From an uncultured Gammaproteobacteria bacterium (GTDB lineage: Bacteria; Pseudomonadota; Gammaproteobacteria; JAURND01): a stretch of DNA of 64,000 nucleotides. Positions within the stretch are counted from its first letter, which is position 1, and every line of letters begins with the position of its first letter. The stretch lies in the NCBI GenBank assembly GCA_963714975.1, contig CAVQQD010000003.1, positions 352,001-416,000 on the forward strand, in the 5' to 3' direction. The notes beneath the pieces were generated by a model. It made no database searches and was not told the origin of the DNA. It saw nothing but the letters and a program-made list of their open reading frames with translations. Positions 43,671-58,626 of this stretch are shown here, in pieces. Both the position numbers and the translations under genes were made by a program.

Positions 43671-44642
43671 ATGAAAAAACCACGTTACACCATTGAGTTC
43701 GAACTCACCCCCCTGGACAATCAACGCTTGGCTGTTTTGTCTGGACAGTTTGATAAAAACCTGCGGCAAATTGAACGTTTTTTTGGGGTTGAAATAAATA
43801 ACCGTGCGGCTAATTTTCAAATTATTGGTCCAAAACGCTCTGTGGAAAAAGCTAAAGCAGTATTAGATAGGCTCTATCAGGAAACAACCACTGCGCTGAT
43901 TGATTCGGCAAAAATTCAAATTTTAATGCAGACCGTCGATACCCAGCAAGGAGTAAAAAAACCACCGCCTGATTATAATGAAGCTATCATCATTACCCCC
44001 AAAGTTAAGGTACGGCCTCGCAGTCCTAATCAATATCATTATGTCAAAAATATTCTGAGTCATGATATTAGTTTTGGGGTAGGCCCTTCGGGTACTGGGA
44101 AAACTTATTTAGCAGTGGCTTGCGCGGTAGCTGCTTTGGCATCCGATCAGGTGCAACGGATTATTTTGGTTAGGCCTGCCGTGGAAGCAGGGGAACGTCT
44201 GGGCTTTTTGCCGGGCGATTTAGCACAAAAAGTCGATCCTTATTTGCGTCCTTTGTATGATGCCTTGTATGAAATGATGGGAGTTGAAGCGGCAGAAAAA
44301 TTAGCTACGAAAAATATCATTGAAGTAGCGCCCTTGGCTTATATGCGGGGCCGCACGCTCAATGAAGCCTTTATTATTTTGGATGAAAGTCAAAATACCA
44401 CGCGTGAACAAATGAAAATGTTTTTAACTCGGATTGGTTTTGGATCAAAAGTAGTGATTACTGGCGATATTACGCAGACTGATCTCCCTAAGCACGAGCT
44501 TTCGGGTTTGCGTCATGCGATTGCCGTGCTTAATGAAGTCCAAGATATTCACTTTACGTTTTTTCAAGCCCACGATGTCGTGCGTCATCCTTTGGTACAA
44601 CTGATTATTCAAGCCTATGAAAAAGCCGAACATCCAAATTGA
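43671..44642 (+). CDS. ybeZ: PhoH-family protein (YbeZ)
   Basis: GPSGTGKT, RPAVEAGERLGFLPG, YMRGRT; miaB-ybeZ-ybeY synteny. Confidence 0.94.
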   Translation: MKKPRYTIEFELTPLDNQRLAVLSGQFDKNLRQIERFFGVEINNRAANFQIIGPKRSVEKAKAVLDRLYQETTTALIDSAKIQILMQTVDTQQGVKKPPPDYNEAIIITPKVKVRPRSPNQYHYVKNILSHDISFGVGPSGTGKTYLAVACAVAALASDQVQRIILVRPAVEAGERLGFLPGDLAQKVDPYLRPLYDALYEMMGVEAAEKLATKNIIEVAPLAYMRGRTLNEAFIILDESQNTTREQMKMFLTRIGFGSKVVITGDITQTDLPKHELSGLRHAIAVLNEVQDIHFTFFQAHDVVRHPLVQLIIQAYEKAEHPN

Positions 44643-44662
44643 GAGCAGAAGAAAAATAGAGT

Positions 44663-44703
44663 GGTTCTATGTAGAATCTACCCACTCAAAACTTCATAGA
44701 GCC
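44663..44703. mobile_element. 41-bp MITE with an 8-bp target duplication (AATAGAGT)
   Basis: Ends GGTTCTATG/CATAGAGCC; direct repeats at 44655-44662 and 44704-44711. Confidence 0.75.
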
Positions 44704-44709
44704 AATAGA

Positions 44710-44742
44710 GTTAATATTTGCTTAAGATAATTGTGTTAGGGT
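44710..44742 (+). promoter_or_regulatory. PmrA-type box plus -10-like element
   Basis: GTTAATATT-TG-CTTAAGATA-N7-TAGGGT. Confidence 0.65.
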
Positions 44743-44771
44743 TAAACCTGATCATTGACAGAGGAGATATT

Positions 44772-45380
44772 ATGATGGCTAGACAGAATGAAATAGAGCG
44801 TAATGAATCTGCAAATTCAAGGCTTGTTGAAGCTCGGAAATTAGTGGAGAAAATGCATGCAAAAGGAGAGTCACTTTGGATTCGTTTCTTTTACCCAGAA
44901 AAAGCAAAAATTGCTAGTGAATGGGCACGGCGAGCTCGGCAAGATTTGTGGAGAGAGGACGAATCAGAAAAGACTATACCAAGCTTAAGTCAAGACCATC
45001 CACAAATACAGGCTCAATCACACCGCCCTCTTACAACAGAGCTAAACTTATCAGATCATGAACAAGAAGTATTATCCGAGGTTCGCATGCGGCAAATTTT
45101 GGTTCCATTTGTCATTGGAATCGGGGCAATTGCCTCAGCGCCAGCTTGGCTGCCAAAGGTGGCGAATGTTACAACTGATGAGGCAGCGCTCTATTTGGGG
45201 ATCGCTCTTGTATTTTATTTTTTCATGTCGTTGCATCTGATGGCTGAGCATTGGAATTATAATCTTACTGAAGGCAAATGGATAATCAAGGATGGAAAAA
45301 CTGATTCAATGGCAACGGTCGATCGTTATAACGCACTTGTGCAGGAAGAACAAGTGGAAACCAGGCCTTCCCTCGTTTAA
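44772..45380 (+). CDS. Orphan 2-TM protein, candidate effector
   Basis: GAGGAG RBS; two hydrophobic helices; QEEQVE near the C-terminus; PmrA-type box. Confidence 0.65.
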   Translation: MMARQNEIERNESANSRLVEARKLVEKMHAKGESLWIRFFYPEKAKIASEWARRARQDLWREDESEKTIPSLSQDHPQIQAQSHRPLTTELNLSDHEQEVLSEVRMRQILVPFVIGIGAIASAPAWLPKVANVTTDEAALYLGIALVFYFFMSLHLMAEHWNYNLTEGKWIIKDGKTDSMATVDRYNALVQEEQVETRPSLV

Positions 45381-45413
45381 AATGCAGCAGTGTATTTATA
45401 ATGCTATAGAGTA

Positions 45414-45498
45414 GGTTCTATGTAGAATCGAGTGGGTAGATTTTCCTTCTCCCACAAGGGGAGAAAGATATATTACCCACTCAAAACTTCATAGAGCC
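45414..45498. mobile_element. 85-bp MITE with the same ends and an 8-bp target duplication (ATAGAGTA)
   Basis: GGTTCTATGTAGAAT...AAAACTTCATAGAGCC; direct repeats at 45406-45413 and 45499-45506; contains a family A hairpin. Confidence 0.75.
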
Positions 45499-45527
45499 AT
45501 AGAGTAGGAATTGTTGGCACATTGAGA

Positions 45528-45965
45528 ATGCTAAAACTTCATCTCCAAATTGCTTCGTCGTCCCAGCAGAAACGACGCTTTGGTACATTCATTCCGAGCC
45601 GTGCTCAATTTCGTCGTTGGATTGGTGCGGTAGTAGCTGACACTGAATTAACCATCCGTATCACCGATGAAGTTGAAAGCACCGAGTTAAATCAAAAATA
45701 TCGTCGCAAGCAAGGCCCTACTAATGTGTTGTCATTTCCTTCAAGTGAAACCCCCTATCTGGGTGATCTAGTGTTTTGCGGACCTTTAGTGCAGCAAGAA
45801 GCGCAGCAACAAAATAAATCCTTGTCAGCGCATTGGGCGCATTTAACCATTCATGGGGTGTTGCATCTACTGGGTTATGACCATGAACGCTCACAAGATG
45901 CTGAAATTATGGAGGGCTTGGAGATAGACATCTTACAGAAATTGGGTATTGCAAATCCGTATTAG
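45528..45965 (+). CDS. ybeY: rRNA maturation RNase YbeY
   Basis: PTNVLSF, HGVLHLLGYDHE. Confidence 0.95.
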   Translation: MLKLHLQIASSSQQKRRFGTFIPSRAQFRRWIGAVVADTELTIRITDEVESTELNQKYRRKQGPTNVLSFPSSETPYLGDLVFCGPLVQQEAQQQNKSLSAHWAHLTIHGVLHLLGYDHERSQDAEIMEGLEIDILQKLGIANPY

Positions 45966-46096
45966 AAATTCGCATTCATGACTTGACCGCAAGACAATAC
46001 TGCAAGACAATACTGTAGGTAAAATTACTTGCCTTGAGCAATAAATTCTTGAGTTGTTAGCGATTTAATTTAAAAAATTAAGGAGGTATCAAATTT

Positions 46097-46795
46097 ATGA
46101 TAAATCTCTATTACTGGCCGACGCCAAACGGGCATAAAATTACTATTTTTCTTGAAGAGGCAGGGTTGGCTTACCGTATTATTCCGGTGAATATCGGCCA
46201 GGGAGAACAATTTGCTCCTGAATTTTTACGGCTATCACCTAATAATAAAATGCCGGCTATTGTTGACCCCGAGCCTGCAGTAGGTCAGGAGCCTTTGGCG
46301 ATATTTGAATCAGGCGCCATTTTGCTGTATTTGGCGGACAAAACCGGGCGCTTTTTGCCGCAAGAGCCGCATAATCATTATCAGGCATTGTCCTGGCTGT
46401 TCTGGCAGGTCGCTGGCTTGGGGCCTATGGCAGGACAAAATCATCATTTTGTGCAATATGCACCGGAGAAAATCTCTTATGCGATAGATCGTTATGTCAA
46501 AGAGACGGCGCGTTTATATGCGGTTTTGAATAAGCAATTGCACCATCATGAATATATTGTTGGGGAATATTCGATTGTGGATATGGCTTGTTATCCTTGG
46601 ATTGTACCCTATGAAAAGCAACTACAGCGTTTGGAAGATTTTCCACATTTAAAGCGCTGGTTTGAATTGATGGGGAGTCGGCCAGCCGTACAACGGGCTT
46701 ATGCTCGGGCAGAGGGGTTCGATAGTCAACCGCTGAGTGAACAGGCTAAGTGTATTTTATTCGGTCAGGATGACAGTGTTGTGCATGATGATTAG
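46097..46795 (+). CDS. GST-like disulfide oxidoreductase (YfcG/Nu class)
   Basis: YYWPTPNGHKI, SPNNKMPAIVD, FESGAILLYLA. Confidence 0.9.
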   Translation: MINLYYWPTPNGHKITIFLEEAGLAYRIIPVNIGQGEQFAPEFLRLSPNNKMPAIVDPEPAVGQEPLAIFESGAILLYLADKTGRFLPQEPHNHYQALSWLFWQVAGLGPMAGQNHHFVQYAPEKISYAIDRYVKETARLYAVLNKQLHHHEYIVGEYSIVDMACYPWIVPYEKQLQRLEDFPHLKRWFELMGSRPAVQRAYARAEGFDSQPLSEQAKCILFGQDDSVVHDD

Positions 46796-46812
46796 ATGAA
46801 TGGGAAACTGCC

Positions 46813-47355
46813 ATGTCTAACTTCGATTCTATTTTAGGGCAGCTAGAACCATGGTCGTTATTCGAGCTTTATCGGTTGCATTCTGCTATCGGTAGGCTAT
46901 TAAATAATCCTGCTAGAAATGAGGCTATTAAGCGTCACCTCAAAGTGGGAATGAAAATCAGCTACTTTGATAGCACCACTAATAGCCTGATCGAAGCAAC
47001 TATCGTTGAGATCAGAAAAACTTGGGTTTCTGTAATTAACATCCATAACGGAAAAAGATGGAGAATTCAGTTTTTCCTTATCAATATTCAAGAAGTTGAT
47101 GTCAGCATTGCACCTACGAAAACAGGCGCTAGTTTAGACAGAAATTCATTAAAGGTGGGAGATTTTGTTGGATGGAATTCCAAAGGATTTGATTTGTATG
47201 GGGTCATTGAAAAGCTTAATCCTAAAAAAGCAATGATACAATTAGGAACTGGAGAACGCTGGACGGTTCCTTATTCTTTATTGTTTTTTGTGATGGATGG
47301 TGTCGTTACAAAACAAAATGCTCAGTTATGCATAGAGGGGGAAGTCATTCGTTGA
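46813..47355 (+). CDS. Hypothetical protein with two SH3/KOW-like repeats
   Basis: LKVGMKISY..WRI and LKVGDFVGW..WTVPY internal repeat. Confidence 0.7.
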   Translation: MSNFDSILGQLEPWSLFELYRLHSAIGRLLNNPARNEAIKRHLKVGMKISYFDSTTNSLIEATIVEIRKTWVSVINIHNGKRWRIQFFLINIQEVDVSIAPTKTGASLDRNSLKVGDFVGWNSKGFDLYGVIEKLNPKKAMIQLGTGERWTVPYSLLFFVMDGVVTKQNAQLCIEGEVIR

Positions 47356-47541
47356 TTTGTCCAAAGTCCTATATAGTAGAATTATGATTAATGTCAAAAT
47401 AGCTGGCAATTGCAAAAATGATAGAATCTAAAGTGTGGAAAACTTCTTACATTAAAAATAACGCAAAAAGAGCGCAAGTTTAATGTCATCTGCTTTACCA
47501 CATTCATAAGATCACTCGTTTCGCTTGAGATGCCTGGAAAG

Positions 47542-48144
47542 TTACTTTTCTTCTTCAATTGATCGCTGTATCGCTGGTCGCTGCATCAGTAGATGAAAAT
47601 AAGAATTTATATTGGACCATTTACTGAGTTCTATGTTAAATAGAGGGAGCCATTTAAGAATTACCATCAAGTAGGCATCTGCTAGGGTAAAGCTAGAACC
47701 TGTAATATATCCGCCTTTTTCTAATTGTTGATTAACAAAGTCTAACTTACGTTCTAGAGCGGGTGAAAAAAATTGAGTTTTCAAATCTTGGGGAATTGTT
47801 GGCTGAAAAAGTAAACCGGCAGTTTTATGTAATTCAGTGCTTACATAGTTCAGCCATTCCAACACACGATAGCGCTGAAGCTGTCCTATGCCAGGTAAAA
47901 GGTTAGTTGCCTGATAAGTCTCAGCTAAGTATTGCTGAATAGCGGAATTTTCGGTAAGTACACTCCCGTCATCAAACTGTAAGACAGGAACATAGCCTTT
48001 GGGATTAATAGCCAGAAAATCACTGCCGCTAGCTGTTTTTTTGGCTTTTAAATCTACCGCTTCAAATTCGCAATCAATGCCGATTTCATGGATGATAACT
48101 CGTACCGCAAAAGAGCAAGCACCTTTTGAGTAATACAATTTCAT
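47542..48144 (-). CDS. gstA: Beta-class glutathione S-transferase
   Basis: MKLYYSKGACS, INPKGYVPVL, STELHK. Confidence 0.9.
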   Translation of the reverse strand: MKLYYSKGACSFAVRVIIHEIGIDCEFEAVDLKAKKTASGSDFLAINPKGYVPVLQFDDGSVLTENSAIQQYLAETYQATNLLPGIGQLQRYRVLEWLNYVSTELHKTAGLLFQPTIPQDLKTQFFSPALERKLDFVNQQLEKGGYITGSSFTLADAYLMVILKWLPLFNIELSKWSNINSYFHLLMQRPAIQRSIEEEK

Positions 48145-48235
48145 TATAAAAACTCCTTTTAGTTGTAGCTTTACTTGGAAGCCTTAGTCTAACATTGTAA
48201 CAAACAGTTTCAAGGCTTGCATATCGTTAGCAGCA

Positions 48236-48400
48236 ATTGTAAGTCACCACTTGTGTTAAAGTAGTTTCTAAGAGAGAAAAGGCTCCCTCGCAAGAAGAAG
48301 CCTGCGGGCGTGAGCGACCGGGCAGCAATAGGTCATACAGCCGTGAGAATCAAGGTACTCTAGCCCTAACTCTCGATACGTTTGAATAGTTAATTTGGGA
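48236..48400 (+). mobile_element. Truncated IS110 left end (partial bridge-RNA locus, no transposase)
   Basis: 48231-48400 matches 50648-50817 with 6 substitutions. Confidence 0.9.
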
Positions 48401-48457
48401 GGCAGATTCAGATACGAAATGCAATTTTTAGTTAAATTTATTAAGAGGGGATTTGCA

Positions 48458-49159
48458 ATGGATATGCCTGTTTGTGTAATTGTAGGAGTTGGGTCTGGCA
48501 ATGGCGCTGCTTTTGCTGATCAATTTTCAAAGGCTGGTTATCACCTCGCTTTGCTTGCACGGCACACTAGCTTTACTGATGAACTTGCAACCCAATTGGG
48601 TAACGCATCTTCTTACGAATGTGATGTAACCAGCGTCTCGTCAATTACCCAAACTTTTCAGCGCATCCAAAAGGAGCAAGGTGAAATTGACGTGCTAATT
48701 TACAATGCCGGTTCTGGCACATGGGGCAATATTGAAGATATTACCGCTCAGCAGTTTGAGGATGCTTGGTCCGTCAATGCAAAAGGCTTGCTCATGGTGA
48801 GTCAGCAAGTAATTCCAAGCATGAAAAAACGTGGCCAGGGAAGCATTGTTGTTATTGGCGCTACAGCTTCAAGACGCGGTGGCATAAAAACTGCGGCATT
48901 TGCACCTGCTAAAGCGGCTCAGCGCAGCCTGACCGAATCCATGGCCAGGCATCTATGGCCCTTAGGAATTCACGTGGCTTTGGTTATTATTGATGGCATC
49001 ATCGATTTACCCAAAACTCGTTCCAATCTTCCCGATAAGCCTGATAGTTTTTTCTTAAAGCCGGCTGATATAGCAGCTACCGTGTATTGGTTAACTCAGC
49101 AGCCCTCATCCGCTTGGAGTTTTGAAGTCGAAGCCAGGCCCTTTGGGGAGGCGTGGTAG
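48458..49159 (+). CDS. Short-chain dehydrogenase/reductase
   Basis: VGVGSGNG, YNAG, GATAS..FAPAK. Confidence 0.9.
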   Translation: MDMPVCVIVGVGSGNGAAFADQFSKAGYHLALLARHTSFTDELATQLGNASSYECDVTSVSSITQTFQRIQKEQGEIDVLIYNAGSGTWGNIEDITAQQFEDAWSVNAKGLLMVSQQVIPSMKKRGQGSIVVIGATASRRGGIKTAAFAPAKAAQRSLTESMARHLWPLGIHVALVIIDGIIDLPKTRSNLPDKPDSFFLKPADIAATVYWLTQQPSSAWSFEVEARPFGEAW

Positions 49160-49179
49160 CTGCTGCTAAATTTTGTTAG

Positions 49180-49409
49180 TTATCTAGAAGATACAGGCGG
49201 CCATCGTCTGACTGTATGCACCAATGCTAATATCCAGATGGTTTGTTGGTTAATTTCATATACTAGGCGATAACTTTCGTGTGGAATTAATTAAGTTCTC
49301 GTGCTAGCTGAGAAGTAGGTCGATCGATAGCTTGAGTTTCGGCGATAAACTCAGCGCGTAAATCAGACTCCAGCTTCATGGTAAAAACGGCTTCTTTCGA
49401 CATAATCAT
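49180..49409 (-). pseudogene. Collapsed toxin-antitoxin relic: antitoxin N-terminus joined to a RelE/ParE toxin C-terminus
   Basis: MSKEAVFTMKLESDLRAEF..RPTSQLAREL then, out of frame, IPHESYRLVYEI..IWILALVHTVRRWPP. Confidence 0.75.
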
Positions 49410-49727
49410 ACCCTTTCTCTATTTTTACATACTAAGTATGACGTTTTCATTACTTCATGCCACAAAATTCCGATAAAATTCATTGCCAAACCGTAACCAT
49501 TCACCACAATGTTAATGGCAATATTCCTTCTCCCACAAGGGGAGAAGGAGTTTGCCCAATTATCATGCTGAATGTTTACGCCAAACCTTACTATTGGCTG
49601 TTGAATATAACCTATGCCGCCTTGTGATGCGGGGGTTCACTAACCAAAGCCGATCAAATTTGCTGGCAGCATTAACGGAGCGCATGGTGGCGAGGTTTGA
49701 ACTATTATAACTATCGAGATACATTGT

Positions 49728-50627
49728 ATGAAATATCTATCATTATTCATAACTGCGATTTTTTTTAACAGTATTACTGCGCTTGCCAATATACCAGTAA
49801 TTAAATTTACACGTGTCCAGAAAAATCTGGAAGCTCTTGAGAAGAGTTTTGACGGAAAAATTGGTGTTTATGCTATTAATACCAATAATAATCAAATTAT
49901 TGCTTATCGGGCTGATGAGCGTTTTCCAGTCCAAAGTACCTCTAAATTAATAGTAGTTGCTGCGTTGTTAAAACAAAGTGACCAAAATAAAAAATTATTA
50001 CAAGAGAAAATCTATTATACAAAAAATGCTTTGATTACTTGGCATCCAGTGACAGGAAAATATATTAATAGTGGCATGACATTTGAAGCATTATCAGAAG
50101 CAGCAGTAAGTTATAGTGATAATACAGCTGCGAATCTTATCATAAAAAAATTAGGTGGGCCGACATTCGTAACTAATTTTGCTCGCTCTATTGGAAATAA
50201 AACATTTAATATCCGGCACTATGAAGGAGATTTAAACTCTAATCCGGAGAATGAAGATGATACTGCTACGCCTAAAGATATGGCAATAGGTATACGGGAA
50301 TTAACATTGGGAAATACATTGTCACCACCTCAACGAACTCAATTACTCACATGGATGAGGAATAATACGACCAGTTACAAACGAATGCGTGCAGGTGTTC
50401 CGATTGGCTGGGTTGTTGCTGATAGAACGGGGTCTGGCGATTATGGCGTCGCCAATGATATTGGCATCTTGTGGTCACCTCTATGTAAACCAATTGTATT
50501 AGCTATTTATACGGTACAAAACCAACCAAAGGCAAAGGGTCGAGATGATATCCTGGCGTCAACAACGACTATCGTACTCGATGAATTGGCAAAAAAAGAC
50601 CAATGCTTTAAAGATTTATTTGCATGA
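49728..50627 (+). CDS. Class A beta-lactamase (RTG variant of motif 3)
   Basis: Signal peptide; ERFPVQSTSK, SDN, ExxLN, DRTG. Confidence 0.93.
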   Translation: MKYLSLFITAIFFNSITALANIPVIKFTRVQKNLEALEKSFDGKIGVYAINTNNNQIIAYRADERFPVQSTSKLIVVAALLKQSDQNKKLLQEKIYYTKNALITWHPVTGKYINSGMTFEALSEAAVSYSDNTAANLIIKKLGGPTFVTNFARSIGNKTFNIRHYEGDLNSNPENEDDTATPKDMAIGIRELTLGNTLSPPQRTQLLTWMRNNTTSYKRMRAGVPIGWVVADRTGSGDYGVANDIGILWSPLCKPIVLAIYTVQNQPKAKGRDDILASTTTIVLDELAKKDQCFKDLFA

Positions 50628-50654
50628 TATCTGAAAGGAGTAATCATCAGCAAT

Positions 50655-50845
50655 TGTAAGTCACCACTTGTGTTAAAGTAGTTCCTAAGAGAGAAAAGGC
50701 TCCCTCGCAAGAAGGAGCCTGCGGGCGTGAGCGACCGGTCAGCAATAGGTTATACAGCCGTGGGAATCAAGGTACTCTAGCCCTAACTCTCGATACGTTT
50801 GAATAGTTCATTTGGGACTAAAGCTCCCGCTTACAATCGTAAATA
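50655..50845 (+). ncRNA. Predicted bridge RNA (target- and donor-binding loops); exact ends unknown
   Basis: LTG TCAGCAAT 50739-50746, RTG GGGAAT 50762-50767, LDG ATAGTTCAT 50803-50811, RDG CTTACAAT 50830-50837, each guide pair flanking a hairpin. Confidence 0.8.
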
Positions 50846-50856
50846 TCGAGGTTACC

Positions 50857-51810
50857 ATGAAATTGTATAGTTCTTTTATCGGTATGGATATAGGGAAATT
50901 TAATTTTGTTGTTGCCTTACATGGAGAAAAGATCACGAAAGAGTATCCAAATAGCGCTGAGGGCATTAAGGATTTTTTAAAAGATTATGAAGAAATTTTA
51001 CCCACAGCATTTTGTGTGGTTGAAACGACAGGGGGTCATGAAAAAATTTTGTTACTGGCCCTGCGTTCTAATAGATATGCAGTCCATCGTGCAGATACTA
51101 GGAAAGTAAAAAACTTTATCCATTCCTATGGTAAAAAGGCAAAAACAGATGCATTAGACGCTAAAGGACTAGCCCATTATAGTTATGAAAGGTATCAGGA
51201 ATTAGATATTTATGAACCTCCTGATGAAACGGATATAGCACTTTTTACATTGGTAATGCGTAAAAATGATTTAACAGAGATGCTGGTTGCTGAAAAAAAT
51301 CGCCTTAAATCGCCTAATAATCATGAAATAGTAGAAATAAGTTGTAAAAAAATGATTACCATGCTCTCGGAAGAAATCAAATTGCTCAATGAGAAAATAA
51401 ATGAGCTGATTGAAGGTGTACCTTATTTAAGGGAAAAAAGGAAAGTTTTAAAGAGCATTCCAGGGATTGGTGATGTGCTGAGCTGTGAATTGATTACTTT
51501 ATTGCCTGAACTAGGAACACTGGATAGGAGAAAAATAGCTGCTTTAGCTGGGTTAGCTCCTCAAGCAAATGAGAGTGGCAAATACAAAGGATACAGGCGC
51601 TGTGGTTATGGTCGTCAAGGAGTGAAGCCAAAATTATTTCTCGCTGCCATGGCGGCAAGGAATTCAAATTCGCATCTAAAAGTCTTTTATGAAAAATTGG
51701 TTGGGTCAGGTAAAAAGAAAATGGTGGCTTTAACCGCTTTAATGAGAAAAATTTTAGTCATCGCCAATGCAAAGGTAAGAGATTTCAATAAAGAATATAA
51801 TTTGGCTTGA
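50857..51810 (+). CDS. IS110-family recombinase/transposase
   Basis: GMDIGK, VVETTG, KTDALD (DEDD); SIPGIG, AGLAP..ESG. Confidence 0.95.
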   Translation: MKLYSSFIGMDIGKFNFVVALHGEKITKEYPNSAEGIKDFLKDYEEILPTAFCVVETTGGHEKILLLALRSNRYAVHRADTRKVKNFIHSYGKKAKTDALDAKGLAHYSYERYQELDIYEPPDETDIALFTLVMRKNDLTEMLVAEKNRLKSPNNHEIVEISCKKMITMLSEEIKLLNEKINELIEGVPYLREKRKVLKSIPGIGDVLSCELITLLPELGTLDRRKIAALAGLAPQANESGKYKGYRRCGYGRQGVKPKLFLAAMAARNSNSHLKVFYEKLVGSGKKKMVALTALMRKILVIANAKVRDFNKEYNLA

Positions 51811-51857
51811 AAGAGCACCAAGGAGGGTGCGGTCAAGCCAAATCGACAAGCCCGCTC

Positions 51858-53270
51858 TATAGCGGGCGAAAAATCTAGACAATTTTTTAAAAAATTAAGA
51901 TATAAATTCTCGTCCAGTGTTTGTTAAAATAAAGCCACGATACAGCCGGGGACGGCAATGACCGTGACGTGATTCCGGGCAGCTTTTGCCACCCAAGCCA
52001 CTGCCCGGTTATTTAAATCACGTCTTAAATATCCCGGGGTGTGGGGCGGAGCCCCACCTTAATCCGCATCTTTAATGCACCAATTTTGAATGTACCCTGT
52101 TAGGTGTGAGCCCATTTAAACTTTGATGGGGTCTTTCAAAATTATAAAACTGAAAGTACTCGTCCAATCCTTCCCGCGCAGTCGTAACGTTTTCCCACTC
52201 CTGCAGGTACACACATTCATATTTTACCGATCGCCATAGGCGCTCAACAAAAATATTATCTGCCCATCGTCCCTTTCCATCCATGCTGATTTTGATTTGA
52301 TGCGCGGCGAGCACATCAGTAAAATCTTTGCTTGTAAATTGCGCTCCCTGATCAGTATTAAATATATCGCAGCGTGAATGCGCTAATACCCGCTTAAGTG
52401 TTTCTACACAAAAATCAGCCTCCATAGTGATGCTAAGCTGCCAATCCAATACAAAACGGCTATACCAGTCTATTATGGCCATCAAGTAAACGAAACCTCG
52501 TCGTAGCCTAATATACGTGATATCTGTACTGAAAACTTGGCAAGGCCTGACTATTGCAACGTCATTCAGTAAGTACGGATATACTTTATGTTCAGGATGC
52601 GGCTTACTGGTATGAGGGCCCGGCGCCAATGAGTGCAATCCTAAATGCTCATAAGCCCAACGTGTCTCATGGCGTTTACAAGGGTAATGGTGATAAGAAA
52701 TGTAGTCACTCATTTGCCTTGTACCGAAAGCTGGATGCTTTGTGTAAATTTCATCCACTAAGCGCAGTAATGCTAGCTGTTTATCACTTAATACCTTGGG
52801 ACGTGGCACGTAATATACATTGGAACGGGTTAAATCCAGTAGATCACATTGTCGACAGACTGACAACAATGGGTGTTCTCTCTCAACCCAACCTCGCCTT
52901 TCATCCACGGAACAACTCAAACTTTTTTTTTAAAAAATCATTCTCTACTTTTAAACGACCAATTTGTTCATATAATTCAGCCAGTTGAGTAGCATGTTCC
53001 GTAATTTCATTTTTATTTTTATCACTAAAAACATCGGGCAACAAGGCTAAGGCTTGTTTTTTCCATGCGTTTATTTGCGTTCCATGGGCACCATACTTCG
53101 AGCTAATTTGTGCCAATGTTAGCTCCCCTTTAATAGCTTCCAAAGCAATTTTTGCTTTTTCTGCTGGAGTATATGTTTTACGTTTTTGGCTCATTCTCGT
53201 CTCCTGATCCGAAGCGAGAATTATATCTTAGCTTGCCATTTTAACTGTCTGAATTTCTTCGCCCACTATA
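51858..53270 (-). mobile_element. IS3-family insertion sequence (1413 bp, 3-bp TSD CTC) nested in the IS110 right end
   Basis: Imperfect IRs TATAGyGGGCGAA; CTC at 51855-51857 and 53271-53273. Confidence 0.9.
52072..53194 (-). CDS. IS3 transposase OrfA (52901-53194) and OrfB (52072-52920), joined by a programmed -1 frameshift
   Basis: KAKIALEAIKG HTH; TDITYI, NTDQGAQFTS, ERLWRSVKYE DDE; A9G slippery run at about 52922-52931. Confidence 0.93.
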
Positions 53271-53801
53271 CTCAGCGGGCGCGTCAGTAGGGAGAAACCC
53301 TAGTTTAGGCTGGGGTTTATAGACTTGTATGCTTAAAAATTTTATTTTTTTAAAATTTTTAAGACATAGTTGATTCCCGGTGAATTAAAATCGCCTTAAT
53401 TTTCGTACAGTTAGCGAGACTGTGAAATAAATTTTTCGTACAATGTGGGCATTATTTCTTGAATGGTATTCCATCCCCTCGGTTTTATAAGGAAATGGCA
53501 CAGCCATTTGACCGACGGGTGACGCGCAGGCGGGGACCCCAACGCGCGCAGGAACGAGCACGGTGGGGTGCCGCAGCGGCAGGACCCGTCGTGGATCAGG
53601 GCATCAGCGGGAATTGCTGGAGTAATCATCCTTTTTCTGGATTATTGTCTTCTTTACGTATATAATGCTGGTTTTTAATTATTTCAACATGAGGTTTTGC
53701 ATATCATGAACATGACTACTTAAAGTTGCCCGTCAAGGGCCAAAGAGCGCGCTATTTACGCTCTGTTTTGAGAATCGCCCTTCACTTTAAGAGAGTCACT
53801 T

Positions 53802-55241
53802 ATGCATAAGCCCATTCAAATTGAACAGCTAAGTTTATCCTTCCCTAACAAGACCTGCTTTGAAGCATTTAACGCTGAAATTCATCATGGCAGCCGCATT
53901 GCCATTATTGGTCGCAATGGCTGTGGAAAAACGAGTTTACTGAATATATTGCGTGGCTTAGCAGAACCGACTATGGGTCGTATTATCATGCCTGCCGACG
54001 CAATAATTGGTTTTGTGCCACAGGTAATTAACGACTTTGTTGATCACAGTGGTGGTGAGCGGCTCAATTGTGCTTTGACCCAAGCCTTAAGTCTTCAGCC
54101 CAATATTTTATTGCTGGATGAACCCACTAATCACCTCGATGAGCGGAATCGCCGCCATGTGTTGCGTTGGCTGGAGCATTTTTCCGGCACATTGCTGGTC
54201 GTTTCACATGATGTGGTTCTGCTGCGTCAGTTGGTGAATACGTTTTGGCATATCGATCAAAGCCGTATTCAGATTTTTACTGGTGGTTTTGATGATTATC
54301 AACAAGCCCGAAACATTCAGCGGGTGCAATTGGAAATATCGTTACAGAATCTAAAACGCGAACGAAATGACCTGCATCAATCACTCATGCAAGAACAACA
54401 GCGTGCAGCCAAAAGCAAGACCAAGGGTGCAAAAAATATTGATCAAAGAAAATGGCCAACGGTAGTGAGTCATGCGAAGGCCAGTCGATCTCAAGAAACT
54501 AGTGGGCGGAAAAAAGCTGCGCTTGCTAGTAAAAACCAAGCGGTATTGGCAGAATTGGCTGAGTTGCATATCCCTGAAGTCATTGTTCCTAAATTTCATT
54601 TGTCTTACCAAAAAAATAATCATACGGTATTATCCATTAGTCAGGGGTCAGTAGGCTATGCTGAAAATAAATGGATATTGCAAAATATTCATTTATCGAT
54701 AATGGCTGGAAACCGTGTTGCACTGCTTGGTGATAACGGTTCAGGGAAATCCAGCTTATTTAAGGCTATTTTAGCAGCTGAAGATGTGATTCGTTCTGGG
54801 GAATGGTTCTTGCCTAGGCAACATGCCATGGGCTATTTAGATCAGCATTATCAAACGCTTTGTCCTACAGACACGGTATTAACATCCATCAGTCGCTTGA
54901 TGCCAAACTGTTCTCACGTGGAAATTCGTTATCATTTAAGTGATTTTTTATTTCGCAGTCAAGAGACAGTTAATACGCCGATTGCACAACTGTCCGGCGG
55001 TGAAAAAGCGCGTTTATCGTTGGCGCATATTGCCGCACAAACACCGGAGCTGTTATTGCTGGATGAAGTGACTAATAATTTGGATCTAGAAACTCGTCAA
55101 CATGTAATTGAAGTATTGAAAGATTATCCAGGCAGTTTGTTGGTGATTTCACATGATCAAGAGTTTTTGCGTGCGATTGCAATCCAAGATTATTATGAGA
55201 TCACTGAGGGTAGTCTGCATTTGCAATTACCATTGAGCTAA
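53802..55241 (+). CDS. ABC-F family ATPase (possible ribosomal-protection type)
   Basis: Two ABC domains (GRNGCGKT, GDNGSGKS; SGGE; LLDE), long helical linker, no TM segments. Confidence 0.88.
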   Translation: MHKPIQIEQLSLSFPNKTCFEAFNAEIHHGSRIAIIGRNGCGKTSLLNILRGLAEPTMGRIIMPADAIIGFVPQVINDFVDHSGGERLNCALTQALSLQPNILLLDEPTNHLDERNRRHVLRWLEHFSGTLLVVSHDVVLLRQLVNTFWHIDQSRIQIFTGGFDDYQQARNIQRVQLEISLQNLKRERNDLHQSLMQEQQRAAKSKTKGAKNIDQRKWPTVVSHAKASRSQETSGRKKAALASKNQAVLAELAELHIPEVIVPKFHLSYQKNNHTVLSISQGSVGYAENKWILQNIHLSIMAGNRVALLGDNGSGKSSLFKAILAAEDVIRSGEWFLPRQHAMGYLDQHYQTLCPTDTVLTSISRLMPNCSHVEIRYHLSDFLFRSQETVNTPIAQLSGGEKARLSLAHIAAQTPELLLLDEVTNNLDLETRQHVIEVLKDYPGSLLVISHDQEFLRAIAIQDYYEITEGSLHLQLPLS

Positions 55242-55431
55242 CCAGACTCTTAAGTTTTTAAAAAATCTACCCTGACCTAATAGCTGTTTGGCCGACTGAA
55301 CCTTGATCCGTCAATATTAAATATGGTATATCTGCGTTGGTCTTAGGGATCGCTATTGGGCGCATCAATGGAAATTTTCTGCTGCCTTATATAATATTAT
55401 CACGTAGCTCATGTTCTGTAAGAGACTAAAA

Positions 55432-56169
55432 ATGACTTCATTAAAAAATAAAGTAGCCATTGTTACGGGCTCTACTGGCGGCATAGGCGAAGCTATTGCG
55501 CGCTTACTCAGCCATGAAAGCACTCGCGTTGTAATCAATTCAGTCTCTTCGCGAGCTAAAGGGGAGGCATTAGCCACTGAATTGCATGGTTTGTATTGCC
55601 AAGCGGATATCACCATTGAAGAGGATTGTCAGCGCTTAATTGAAACCACCATTCAACACTATGGACGATTGGATTTTTTAATTAATAATGCAGGTAGCGT
55701 AGGTCGGCTACCAAGTAATAATCTTGCAGATTTGAGTAATGAATTATTTTCTCGCATGTTAAATATCAATGTAGTAGGTACCTGGTGTTTAACACGTTAT
55801 GCCATTCCTCAGTTAAAACAGTCTCAAGATGGTGTGATTATCAATATTACCTCCGTTGCAGGCACAGATGCGGCTGCAGCCACTAGCTCCATTCCCTATG
55901 CTGTTTCCAAAGCAGCCTTGAATCATTTGACTAAATTATTGGCCAAAGAGCTAGGCCCAGAAGTTCGAGCGAATGCCATTGCTCCTGGACTGATTAAAAC
56001 ACCCCGCACTCAAAATTATACAGAAGCAATCACTAAATTTACTGAAGGTTCTCCGTTAAAACGCACCGGGGAACCTAATGATGTTGCTGGAATTGCCCTG
56101 GCTTTGATCAAATCCAACTATATCAATGGTGAAGTGGTGGTAGTTGATGGTGGATTTTCGACTATGTAA
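55432..56169 (+). CDS. Short-chain dehydrogenase/reductase
   Basis: TGSTGGIG, INNAG, YAVSK. Confidence 0.92.
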   Translation: MTSLKNKVAIVTGSTGGIGEAIARLLSHESTRVVINSVSSRAKGEALATELHGLYCQADITIEEDCQRLIETTIQHYGRLDFLINNAGSVGRLPSNNLADLSNELFSRMLNINVVGTWCLTRYAIPQLKQSQDGVIINITSVAGTDAAAATSSIPYAVSKAALNHLTKLLAKELGPEVRANAIAPGLIKTPRTQNYTEAITKFTEGSPLKRTGEPNDVAGIALALIKSNYINGEVVVVDGGFSTM

Positions 56170-56322
56170 ATTTTTTTAAAGAATAAGTGGCAAGAGCCAT
56201 CAAGTGATAGCAAAATCAACAGCGCATTCAGTTTGCAGCACTATGGGGTTAAAATTAGAATTGCTGTGGGAGAAGGGATTTCCTTTGTTTGCTGGGAATT
56301 GCTGCTATATAATAGCTCGCCT

Positions 56323-58626
56323 ATGAAAACTACTAAGATTAAAAATAAATCCAAATCATTTGCTAAGCCTTTTCCCTTGCGCTTGCGTGAACCTTTACTC
56401 ATATTGGTTGTGGCGATTGGCTTATTCTTAGTACTCTCTTTACTCACTTATACCCCTGCTGATCCTGCCGGGTTTGCTGTGCTGAAAAATCAAGCCGTGA
56501 TGAATGGTGGTGGTAAGTTAGGGGCTTTTTTGTCCAGCAGCTTGATTCATTTGTTTGGCTATTTTTCCTTTGTGTTCCCCTTCATGCTGTTTTATGGTGT
56601 TTGGCTTTATTTCCGCTATCGTGGCGCCATGGATCAAGAACAGTTTGCTTATTTTCGGATGTTGCGGGTGGCTGGGTTTTTTTTCATTTTGATCCCGGGC
56701 TGCGCTCTAGCGAGTTTACACGTTGCCATTGATTGGGCTCCAGGAGTCACGGGTGGCGGTTTTATTGGACGTCGGATGGCGCTTGGGATGGTGCATTTCG
56801 TCAATGTTTCAGGTACTGATCTTTTATTAACTGCGTTTTTCTTAGGCGGAATTACTCTTTTTACGGGTTTATCGTGGTTAACGGTTGCTGATGTGCTAGG
56901 CGATGCATTATGGCGCGCCAATCGTTCCATTCGGGCGATTTTATCGCGGATTGACCAATGGGCTATGAACTCCAGTGTGAAAGAAGAACGCTTGGGAGAA
57001 ATAGAGCCGATTATCCTGCCAAAACGCCAACCCAAAATTATGCGGGTGGAACCTAAGCTTGAATCTGTGGCGCCGCCTGAACCTATGATGCTAAGCAAAA
57101 AGGTTGATGTAGAGCCAGCATTATTTGAACCGCCATTGGCGGGAACTTTACCTCCGCTTTCGTTATTGGATCCTCCAAATCATTCTCATGTGAAGGGTTA
57201 CACTAATCAACAGCTCGAAGAAATCTCACGAGAAGTTGAGCTCCGGTTACAAGATTTTGGCATTCAAGTTAAAGTGGTTGCGGTGCATCCAGGTCCTGTT
57301 GTCACGCGATTCGAATTACAATTAGCCGCAGGCACTAAGGTCAGTCGGATTACTGCCTTAGCCAAGGACTTAGCACGCTCTTTATCAGTCATTAGTGTGC
57401 GAGTAGTCGAGATTATCCCAGGCAAGCCGGTGATTGGCTTGGAACTACCGAATATCGATCGTGAAATTGTGCGGTTAAGTGAGATTTTAGCCGCTGATCT
57501 ATATCAATCGGCTTTTTCTCCGCTCACGTTGGCCATGGGCAAAGATATTTCAGGTTGCCCAGTAGCAGTAGATTTGGCCAAAATGCCGCATTTATTGGTG
57601 GCAGGAACGACCGGTTCGGGTAAGTCAGTGGGATTAAATGCTATGCTGCTTAGTTTATTGTATAAGGCAACCCCTGCTCAGCTGCGTTTAATTTTAATTG
57701 ATCCAAAAATGCTAGAGTTATCGGTTTATGAGGGGATTCCGCATCTATTAACTCCTGTGGTAACCGATATGAAAGATGCGGCAAATGCCTTGCGTTGGGG
57801 CGTGGCGGAGATGGATCGGCGTTATCGATTGATGGCATTTTTAGGGGTGCGTAACATTGCTGGTTATAATGCTAAAGTAAAGGAAGCTGAGAATAAAGGC
57901 ACGCCGTTGTTTGATCCTTTTTTGCCTGGTGATTTGAGCCAAGATAATCCGCCTCCTTTGACTAATTTGCCTTATATTGTGGTGTTGGTGGATGAATTTG
58001 CTGACATGATGATGTTAGTGGGCAAGAAAGTAGAGGAACTGATTGCCCGAATTGCGCAAAAAGCTCGGGCGGCTGGCATTCATTTAATTCTTGCTACCCA
58101 ACGACCTTCCGTGGATGTGATTACTGGTTTAATTAAAGCGAATATTCCTACGCGCGTGGCTTTCCAGGTTTCCTCAAAAATTGATTCGCGCACTATCTTA
58201 GATCAACAAGGGGCAGAACAATTATTAGGTCACGGTGATATGCTTTACCTGCCGCCTGGCACAGGCGTGCCGATTCGGGTTCATGGTGCTTTTGTTGCGG
58301 ATGAAGAAGTACATCGAGTTGTGTATGATATTAAACGCCGTGGGCAACCGCAATATTTAGAGGAAATTTTGCAAGGTGAAGCTACAGACCCTGGATCTGA
58401 ATCTGCAATTGAGGGAGAAGTCACAGGTGAACAGGATCCTTTATACGACCAAGCCGTGCAAATTGTGGTGGAATCACGTCGGGCCTCGATTTCGCATATC
58501 CAAAGGCGCCTGAAGATTGGTTATAACCGCGCGGCTAATATCGTGGAAGCAATGGAAGCAGCAGGAGTTGTTACCGGTATGGATAGTAGTGGGGTACGCG
58601 AAGTATTAGTGGCGGAAGCGCAGTAG
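56323..58626 (+). CDS. ftsK: DNA translocase FtsK
   Basis: 4TM N-terminus, [26 protein letters not shown], gamma domain [12 protein letters not shown]. Confidence 0.97.

Follow-up and report, generated by a model that had tools for sequence, protein, structure and literature searches.

The 64,000-nucleotide stretch of DNA analysed here (the window) contains the left end of one mobile element twice, once as part of a full copy and once as a stump of 163 bp that ends abruptly, and the two differ in segments that would guide insertion. This raises the question of whether the stump records a change of target within one family of insertion sequences, a relic that has only accumulated mutations, or a sequence that still acts on its surroundings. 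The stump is probably what is left of an older variant (A), a sister of the resident element (B): a truncated and now dead left end with guides aimed at a second subfamily of the REP-like repeats of the host, the remainder of the element having later been cut away.

The full copy, variant B, is an IS110-family element at 50655-53374 (+), in which a bridge-RNA left end is followed by a recombinase gene (50857-51810) and then by a right end that closes in ATAGTTGAT. The recombinase matches the Pfam families DEDD_Tnp_IS110 (PF01548, E=4.5e-19) and Transposase_20 (PF02371, E=1.1e-13) as well as the NCBIfam model NF033542, 'IS110 family RNA-guided transposase' (160.7 bits, cut-off 140), and in comparison with solved transposase structures it is homologous to those of ISCro4 (E=9e-32) and IS621 (E=5e-29). 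There are four full B copies in the 2.56-Mb genome, the one in the window and those at G000:C2:68585-69888, C3:459657 and C3:520424; the uninterrupted element is 1304 bp long and the copies differ from each other by 0 to 1 base. The window copy is interrupted at 51858-53270, within its right non-coding end, by a 1413-bp IS3-family element that leaves the recombinase gene intact. This second element carries orfA/orfB on the minus strand, shows a 3-bp overlap that suggests a target duplication and occurs three times in the genome. Comparison with the three uninterrupted B copies confirmed that the window copy ends on the right at 53374 and is flanked there by TCCC (53375-53378, +). All four copies read ...CAGCAAT/TGTAAG...ATAGTTGAT/TCCC..., where the slash marks the element border, with TGTAAG...GTTGAT ends and the core AT, so that site-specific insertion at a shared core dinucleotide, with no target duplication, holds for four of four.

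The guides of B can be read from this arrangement. The LTG, TCAGCAAT at 50739-50746, repeats the left flank and core, that is, the left target half-site TCAGCAAT at 50647-50654 (+), and the RTG, GGGAAT at 50762-50767, is the complement of AT plus TCCC. Of the nine positions of the LDG, ATAGTTCAT at 50803-50811, eight agree with the right end ATAGTTGAT; the RDG, CTTACAAT at 50830-50837, complements AT followed by TGTAAG, with which the left end begins. The predicted fold of this left end comprises two internal loops closed by conserved stems, and a scan of 44000-58000 against Rfam 15 at E<=1 gave no match. The architecture is shared with IS621 of E. coli and with ISCro4, the IS110-group elements to whose recombinases that of B is homologous: a guide RNA with a target loop and a donor loop lies in the left end, each loop repeats a left half in its 5' strand and complements a right half with its 3' strand, and the target is a repeated extragenic sequence. 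According to passages of Durrant 2024 (PMC11208160), the 5' loop strands of the IS621 bridge RNA pair with 8-9 nt and the 3' strands with 4-7 nt; the guide lengths here are 8 nt and 6 nt. The core is AT here, in contrast to the CT described for IS621 in passages of Hiraizumi 2024 (PMC11208158), and DNA similarity to both known elements is too low for an alignment. By mechanism the full copy is an IS621-type bridge-RNA element, and every membership feature tested was found in it, whereas the subject of this study is a first 163 bp only.

The stump occupies 48238-48400 (+) and corresponds to element positions 1-163, being 96% identical to the same part of the full copy. In a whole-genome search this match has E=1.6e-75 and is thus not due to chance; apart from a 24-nt scar match, discussed below, the genome has no partial copy other than the stump. 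An ungapped alignment of 48231-48400 with 50648-50817 contains exactly six mismatches (stump/full copy: 48267 T/C, 48298 A/G, 48322 G/T, 48334 C/T, 48346 A/G and 48392 A/C), and a seventh difference concerns the adjoining flank base (48230 G, 50647 T). Identity breaks off after 48400. The left target half-site of the stump, GCAGCAAT including the core AT, lies at 48230-48237 (+) and carries G at -8, while its remaining seven nucleotides, CAGCAAT, also flank each of the four full copies on the left. The core AT and the first 29 element bases, which include the right-donor half-site read by the RDG of B, are identical in the two variants. Further into the stump are an extended -10-like motif, TGTTAAAGT, read from the sequence at 48254-48262 (+) and the same in the full copy at 50671-50679, the bridge-RNA 5' stem-loop at 48280-48303 (+) and a complete target-binding loop at 48306-48366 (+). 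The loop holds the LTG, GCAGCAAT at 48322-48329 (+), which is the same 8-mer as the left flank, an inner stem-loop at about 48331-48344 and the RTG, GAGAAT at 48345-48350 (+), followed by a CA that is likely the handshake dinucleotide by analogy with passages of Hiraizumi 2024. The LDG, ATAGTTAAT at 48386-48394 (+), forms the 5' strand of the donor-binding loop, and the breakpoint falls between it and the RDG, so that the stump has no recombinase gene, no right end and nothing of the donor loop beyond this strand (neither its stem-loop nor the RDG). The earlier note on this DNA had described a 170-bp copy with six differences, three of them in guides, and had read the element as encoding a bridge RNA with four guides in register with the core AT, of which this copy keeps a whole target-binding loop but stops inside the donor loop before the RDG and transposase; alignment, motifs and coordinates all agree with that description, including its own caveat that the direct covariation of flank and guide amounts to one base.

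Three of the six internal differences fall in guide positions, which make up 23 of the 163 positions (14%; binomial P=0.040), and the importance of these positions can be assessed in relatives of the element. A scan of metagenome contigs with the conserved target-loop scaffold gave 31 loci (L036 and 30 others), to which were added one further relative in a Legionella sp. MAG (L025) and six copies of a 65%-identical element in the genome G054; a first pattern scan of genome contigs had given one locus, its fixed 3-nt spacer missing the 2-nt form of G054. These relatives share the scaffold TGAGCGACCG ... AGGTACTCTAGCCC, the left-end architecture, the TGTAAG start, a right end in ATAGTTGAT or ATGGTTGAT and the AT core, and their own guides track their flanks; they differ in that none has the guides of the stump or of B and none is from the same genus. 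One related copy in G054 (L014, G054:C2:389157-392845) is also cut short, its similarity to five sister copies ending after 814 bp. The B-type element itself was in none of the 60 relatives' genomes searched, and an intact copy of variant A was found neither in its own genome nor in those 60, nor in the pattern scans of genome and metagenome contigs. RNAalifold applied to 29 relatives recovered the two-loop architecture with 24 predicted pairs, seven of which have undergone compensatory changes; the inner stems of the two loops account for all seven.

Guides and flanks of the relatives were compared with the element ends defined independently of the target guides, the left end as the first TTGTAAG that precedes the loop and the opposite end as AT[AG]GTTGAT more than 900 nt downstream. 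The 42 loci examined, one of which had no left end, gave 34 unique guide/flank pairs and 28 unique insertions with a right end. LTG and flank agree at -8 in 22 of 34 pairs (shuffle mean 10.0; none of 2000 shuffles reached 22), and at -7 to -3 they do so in 26 to 31 of 34; all positions from -8 to -3 exceed the 2000 shuffles, whereas -9, with 14 of 34, is no better than shuffled pairs. On the right side the RTG matches the flank at +1 to +4 in 28, 25, 26 and 25 of 28 insertions, with shuffle means of 10.2, 17.1, 10.5 and 8.2, and none of 2000 shuffles reached any of these counts. Because the relatives are kin to each other, the shuffles overstate the significance of this covariation. Both target-guide positions at which the stump differs, -8 in the LTG and the base reading +3 in the RTG, covary with flanks in relatives and are therefore genuine guide positions. 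The third guide difference, A instead of C at the seventh base of the LDG, was considered as a sign of a changed donor and rejected, since every relative with an identified right end has G at that position of it, against A, C or G in the LDG; L036 shares the LDG of the stump, yet its right end has G at the partner of the seventh base. LDG position 3, by comparison, follows the right end in three of three relatives with G there.

The target of the element is a family of REP-like repeats, CAGCAATTCCCGCTG...CGACGGGT, found genome-wide. Uninterrupted CAGCAATTCCC sites (TCCC) number 36 in the genome, and most continue as GCTG...CGACGGGT; uninterrupted CAGCAATTCTC sites (TCTC) number 10. REP-like repeats also occur within the window, for example at about 53609-53619 (-) and 56294-56304 (-), and an inverted empty REP-like site lies about 245 bp beyond the right end of the full copy. 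The guides of the stump predict the target GCAGCAAT/TCTC, and the exact 12-mer GCAGCAATTCTC is present at two empty sites of one REP subfamily. At a third GCAGCAAT/TCTC site (L006, G000:C2:41381-41409), a 17-bp insert equal to left-end positions 1-17 lies exactly between the AT of GCAGCAAT and TCTC, as shown by alignment with three paralogous repeats that lack it; an element of this family therefore once occupied the target predicted for the stump. Only the site would assign the scar to variant A, because the 17 bases are the same in A and B. The scar may have been left by a partial excision that used the right end only. Sites of the type GCAGCAAT/TCTC make up 3 of the 51 CAGCAATTC[CT]C sites (P=0.059; jointly with the G flank of the stump, P=0.019), and these P values of 0.02 to 0.06, being calculated after the pattern had been seen, are only suggestive.

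The two target-guide differences do not carry the same weight. The four B copies share one LTG with T at -8, and their flank bases there are T, T, A and C; sites with T are not clearly preferred (2 occupied and 14 empty, versus 2 occupied and 22 empty for non-T sites), and the G054 copies show the same softness. Because -8 is soft among the B copies, the agreement of G in guide and flank of the stump says little when taken by itself, and because G is also the outgroup state this agreement needs no new event. The informative target-guide difference is the RTG base, as all four full copies lie in TCCC. The change in the RTG is not polarisable and could itself be a mutation of decay. Taken together, it is fairly likely that the guides of the stump had been set to the second subfamily of the host repeat, that is, retargeted. 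The earlier note had spoken of natural retargeting and proposed a check of guide and flank in all genomic copies. This check is clean for the RTG, which fits TCCC in every full copy, but not for -8; the broader claim gains from the covariation of -8 and +3 in relatives and from a predicted target that is a real REP subfamily bearing a scar, but loses from the single LTG shared by B copies with varied flanks and from an LDG difference that has no counterpart in the right end.

The age and condition of the stump can be judged against L036 (77% identity in an alignment of 1211 bp), an outgroup that polarises five of the six differences. Three are changes on the B lineage (position 30, the LTG base at -8 from G to T, and the LDG base from A to C) and two, at 48298 and 48334, are changes on the A lineage. 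Both of the latter break helix pairs. At 48298, where the outgroup has the base of the full copy, A creates a C·A mismatch that weakens the 5' hairpin (-8.2 kcal/mol in the stump versus -15.1 in the full copy), and at 48334 C disrupts the inner stem of the target loop at its fourth pair, which 27 of 29 relatives retain; the minimum-energy structure predicted for the stump is no longer the canonical loop fold. Since both substitutions assignable to the stump lineage break conserved helices, decay is suggested. Since the B copies differ by at most one base in 1304 bp while A and B are 3.7% apart, A appears to be an older lineage and not a recent duplicate. A promoter scan gave no plus-strand consensus promoter at the stump, and, by analogy with the account in Durrant 2024, a -35 partner for TGTTAAAGT may form only across a junction of right end and left end in a circle. 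In IS621, as stated in passages of Hiraizumi 2026, transcription of integrated copies depended on read-through; the gene upstream of the stump, a GstA-like gene at 47542-48144, is divergent, so that read-through into the stump is unlikely.

The course of events would then be as follows. The left end of an intact variant A would have encoded a bridge RNA whose first loop carried an LTG on its 5' strand, repeating the left target half-site, and an RTG on its 3' strand, complementing core and right flank, while the second loop would have read the ends of the element itself in like manner. With G instead of T at -8 and with A instead of G at the base reading +3, A would have been aimed at the GCAGCAAT/TCTC subfamily, and B at (T)CAGCAAT/TCCC, the main subfamily. 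Everything past element position 163 would later have been lost in a deletion or rearrangement that brought the stump next to the DNA preceding the SDR gene. Alone, the stump would have neither mobility nor a complete bridge RNA and would be drifting.

From the breakpoint, 48401-48457 (+) is unrelated DNA without any other match in the genome or in relatives; it leads into a short-chain dehydrogenase/reductase (SDR) gene at 48458-49159 (+), which is followed by a class A beta-lactamase gene (bla) at 49728-50627 (+; PF13354; NF033103 at 295 bits, cut-off 200). The left junction of B sits 20 nt after bla. The SDR and bla pair occurs once in the genome and not in the 30 relatives searched, where homologues of GST, SDR and bla at 49-73% protein identity are never found together; because relatives keep these genes apart, the breakpoint 48400/48401 has no outgroup. 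Among 72,556 plasmid records, none carries the unit and none covers even 80% of 48230-51860. The spacer between the two genes contains, on the minus strand at 49287-49409, a 40-codon ORF that is the front part of a truncated ribbon-helix-helix-type antitoxin gene, and 49330-49407 has 80-86% DNA identity to antitoxin genes on dozens of broad-host plasmids. As the spacer holds a truncated plasmid-like antitoxin gene, the SDR-bla segment is a mosaic, and by its sequence the spacer suggests debris of mobile DNA. At 49524-49549 there is also a palindromic repeat of about 26 nt that recurs many times, at 92-100% identity, in six of eight other genomes of the same family. Truncation of the stump by recombination at right-end-like LDG-coding DNA was considered and rejected, since identity with B runs five bases past the would-be core, to 48400.

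A reading in which chance and decay suffice would make the stump a relic whose guide differences are neutral substitutions or ancestral states, and the TCTC scar an off-target insertion by an element of B-type specificity. Two stump substitutions are indeed clearly degenerative, the outgroup likewise has G at -8, a position where B also accepts A and C, +3 is mismatched in 2 of the 28 insertions of relatives, and half-matches and off-target insertions appear in published work, including parts of a 2026 preprint (bioRxiv 10.64898/2026.08.14.744561). This reading is nevertheless rather unlikely, as it has to accommodate the excess of differences in guide positions, the location of the only other relic of the genome in a site that agrees with both variant bases, the one type (3 of 51) to do so, and the fact that both variant positions follow the flanks in relatives. 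It is still less probable, indeed very doubtful, that the orphan target loop acts in trans, as the earlier note had raised, which would mean that a transcribed stump loop joins a dimer of the B recombinase, pairs with a donor loop of B on another RNA molecule and sends B to GCAGCAAT/TCTC. The sequence allows it, with the loop complete and the -10-like motif kept. Passages of Hiraizumi 2024 (PMC11208158) report that target-loop and donor-loop RNAs supplied as a split pair supported IS621 recombination in vitro, which makes action in trans possible in principle, and passages of Durrant 2024 (PMC11208160) that the bridge RNA works in trans; no title listed in the literature searches concerned an orphan or truncated target loop acting in this way. 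No support came from the locus, however: B copies lie in TCTC sites in none of four cases, the two helix-breaking substitutions weaken the 5' hairpin and the inner loop stem, the canonical fold is no longer favoured, and neither a plus-strand consensus promoter nor a plausible source of read-through serves the stump.

Although the genome has only four full copies, one of them is just 2.25 kb away from the stump, a distance with a chance of about 0.007 under uniform placement, and two independent insertions do not explain it. In a further reading, the left junction of the stump (core AT and TGTAAGT...) and the right end at 53374 would be the ends of an expanded or composite 5.1-kb unit, 48238-53374, with SDR, bla and the full copy as its contents and with the recombinase and bridge RNA of B as the agents of its excision and insertion. 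Excision of SDR and bla as cargo, which the earlier note had proposed, is allowed by the sequence and by published work: the outer borders present the right-donor and left-donor half-sites, the distal right end is intact, the stump junction offers the bridge RNA of B the same right-donor half-site as B's own, the left flank of the stump departs from the LTG of B at -8 only, as in two of four B copies, and the SDR-bla segment is a mosaic with a truncated antitoxin gene. Parts of the preprint cited above (Hu et al. 2026) describe natural loci of the IS110 group that expand as DNA and partial modules are added to them; such loci carry genes for resistance, to beta-lactams among others, and form partial or alternative circles. 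Here too a partial module, a cargo with a beta-lactamase gene and a full module stand in direct order between intact outer donor half-sites, but the partial module is a diverged older variant and not a duplicate, and no evidence was found that the unit moved. The composite reading is improbable. The pair of genes occurs once in the genome, the unit is in none of the plasmid records and none of the 30 relatives searched, and no empty site or second insertion is known. Moreover, B arrived on its own, because its left junction after bla shows canonical insertion into a target of which a paralogue (G000:C3:113379) is empty; A and B, 3.7% apart, are not a tandem duplication, and the B copy here also bears the IS3-family insertion. 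A combination of both roles, in which the stump is a natural 'split' bridge RNA reaching the second REP subfamily as well as the left border of a 5.1-kb bla-carrying unit, with the scar as its trace, has a similarly small probability.

Other REP-targeting elements of the IS110 family offer a comparison. Parts of the work on ISPpu9 and ISPpu10 of Pseudomonas putida (PMC12288879; bioRxiv 10.64898/2026.03.19.712850) report solitary ssr9 modules as mobile units; insertion at one conserved position of REPs and separate modules found alone in the chromosome are common to that case and this one, whereas host and sequence differ and the stump has one end only. Covariation of guide and target was the basis of the discovery of bridge RNAs (Durrant 2024, PMC11208160), and the legend of Extended Data Fig. 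5a in that paper mentions 16 distinct natural target-guide sets, which may already include close variant pairs. Loci of the IS110 group that carry cargo are likewise known from the 2026 preprint, in the parts cited. The finding would have greater weight if the stump were active in trans or mobilised the beta-lactamase gene. As it stands, it is a natural example of the mechanism described in 2024 and involves no new principle. It is a small-scale case of a probable target shift, in which one point change in a guide of 8 nt and one in a guide of 6 nt agree with the division of a host repeat into two subfamilies, with a scar at the predicted site, and it is useful for annotating this family of insertion sequences by its AT core and its TGTAAG...GTTGAT ends.
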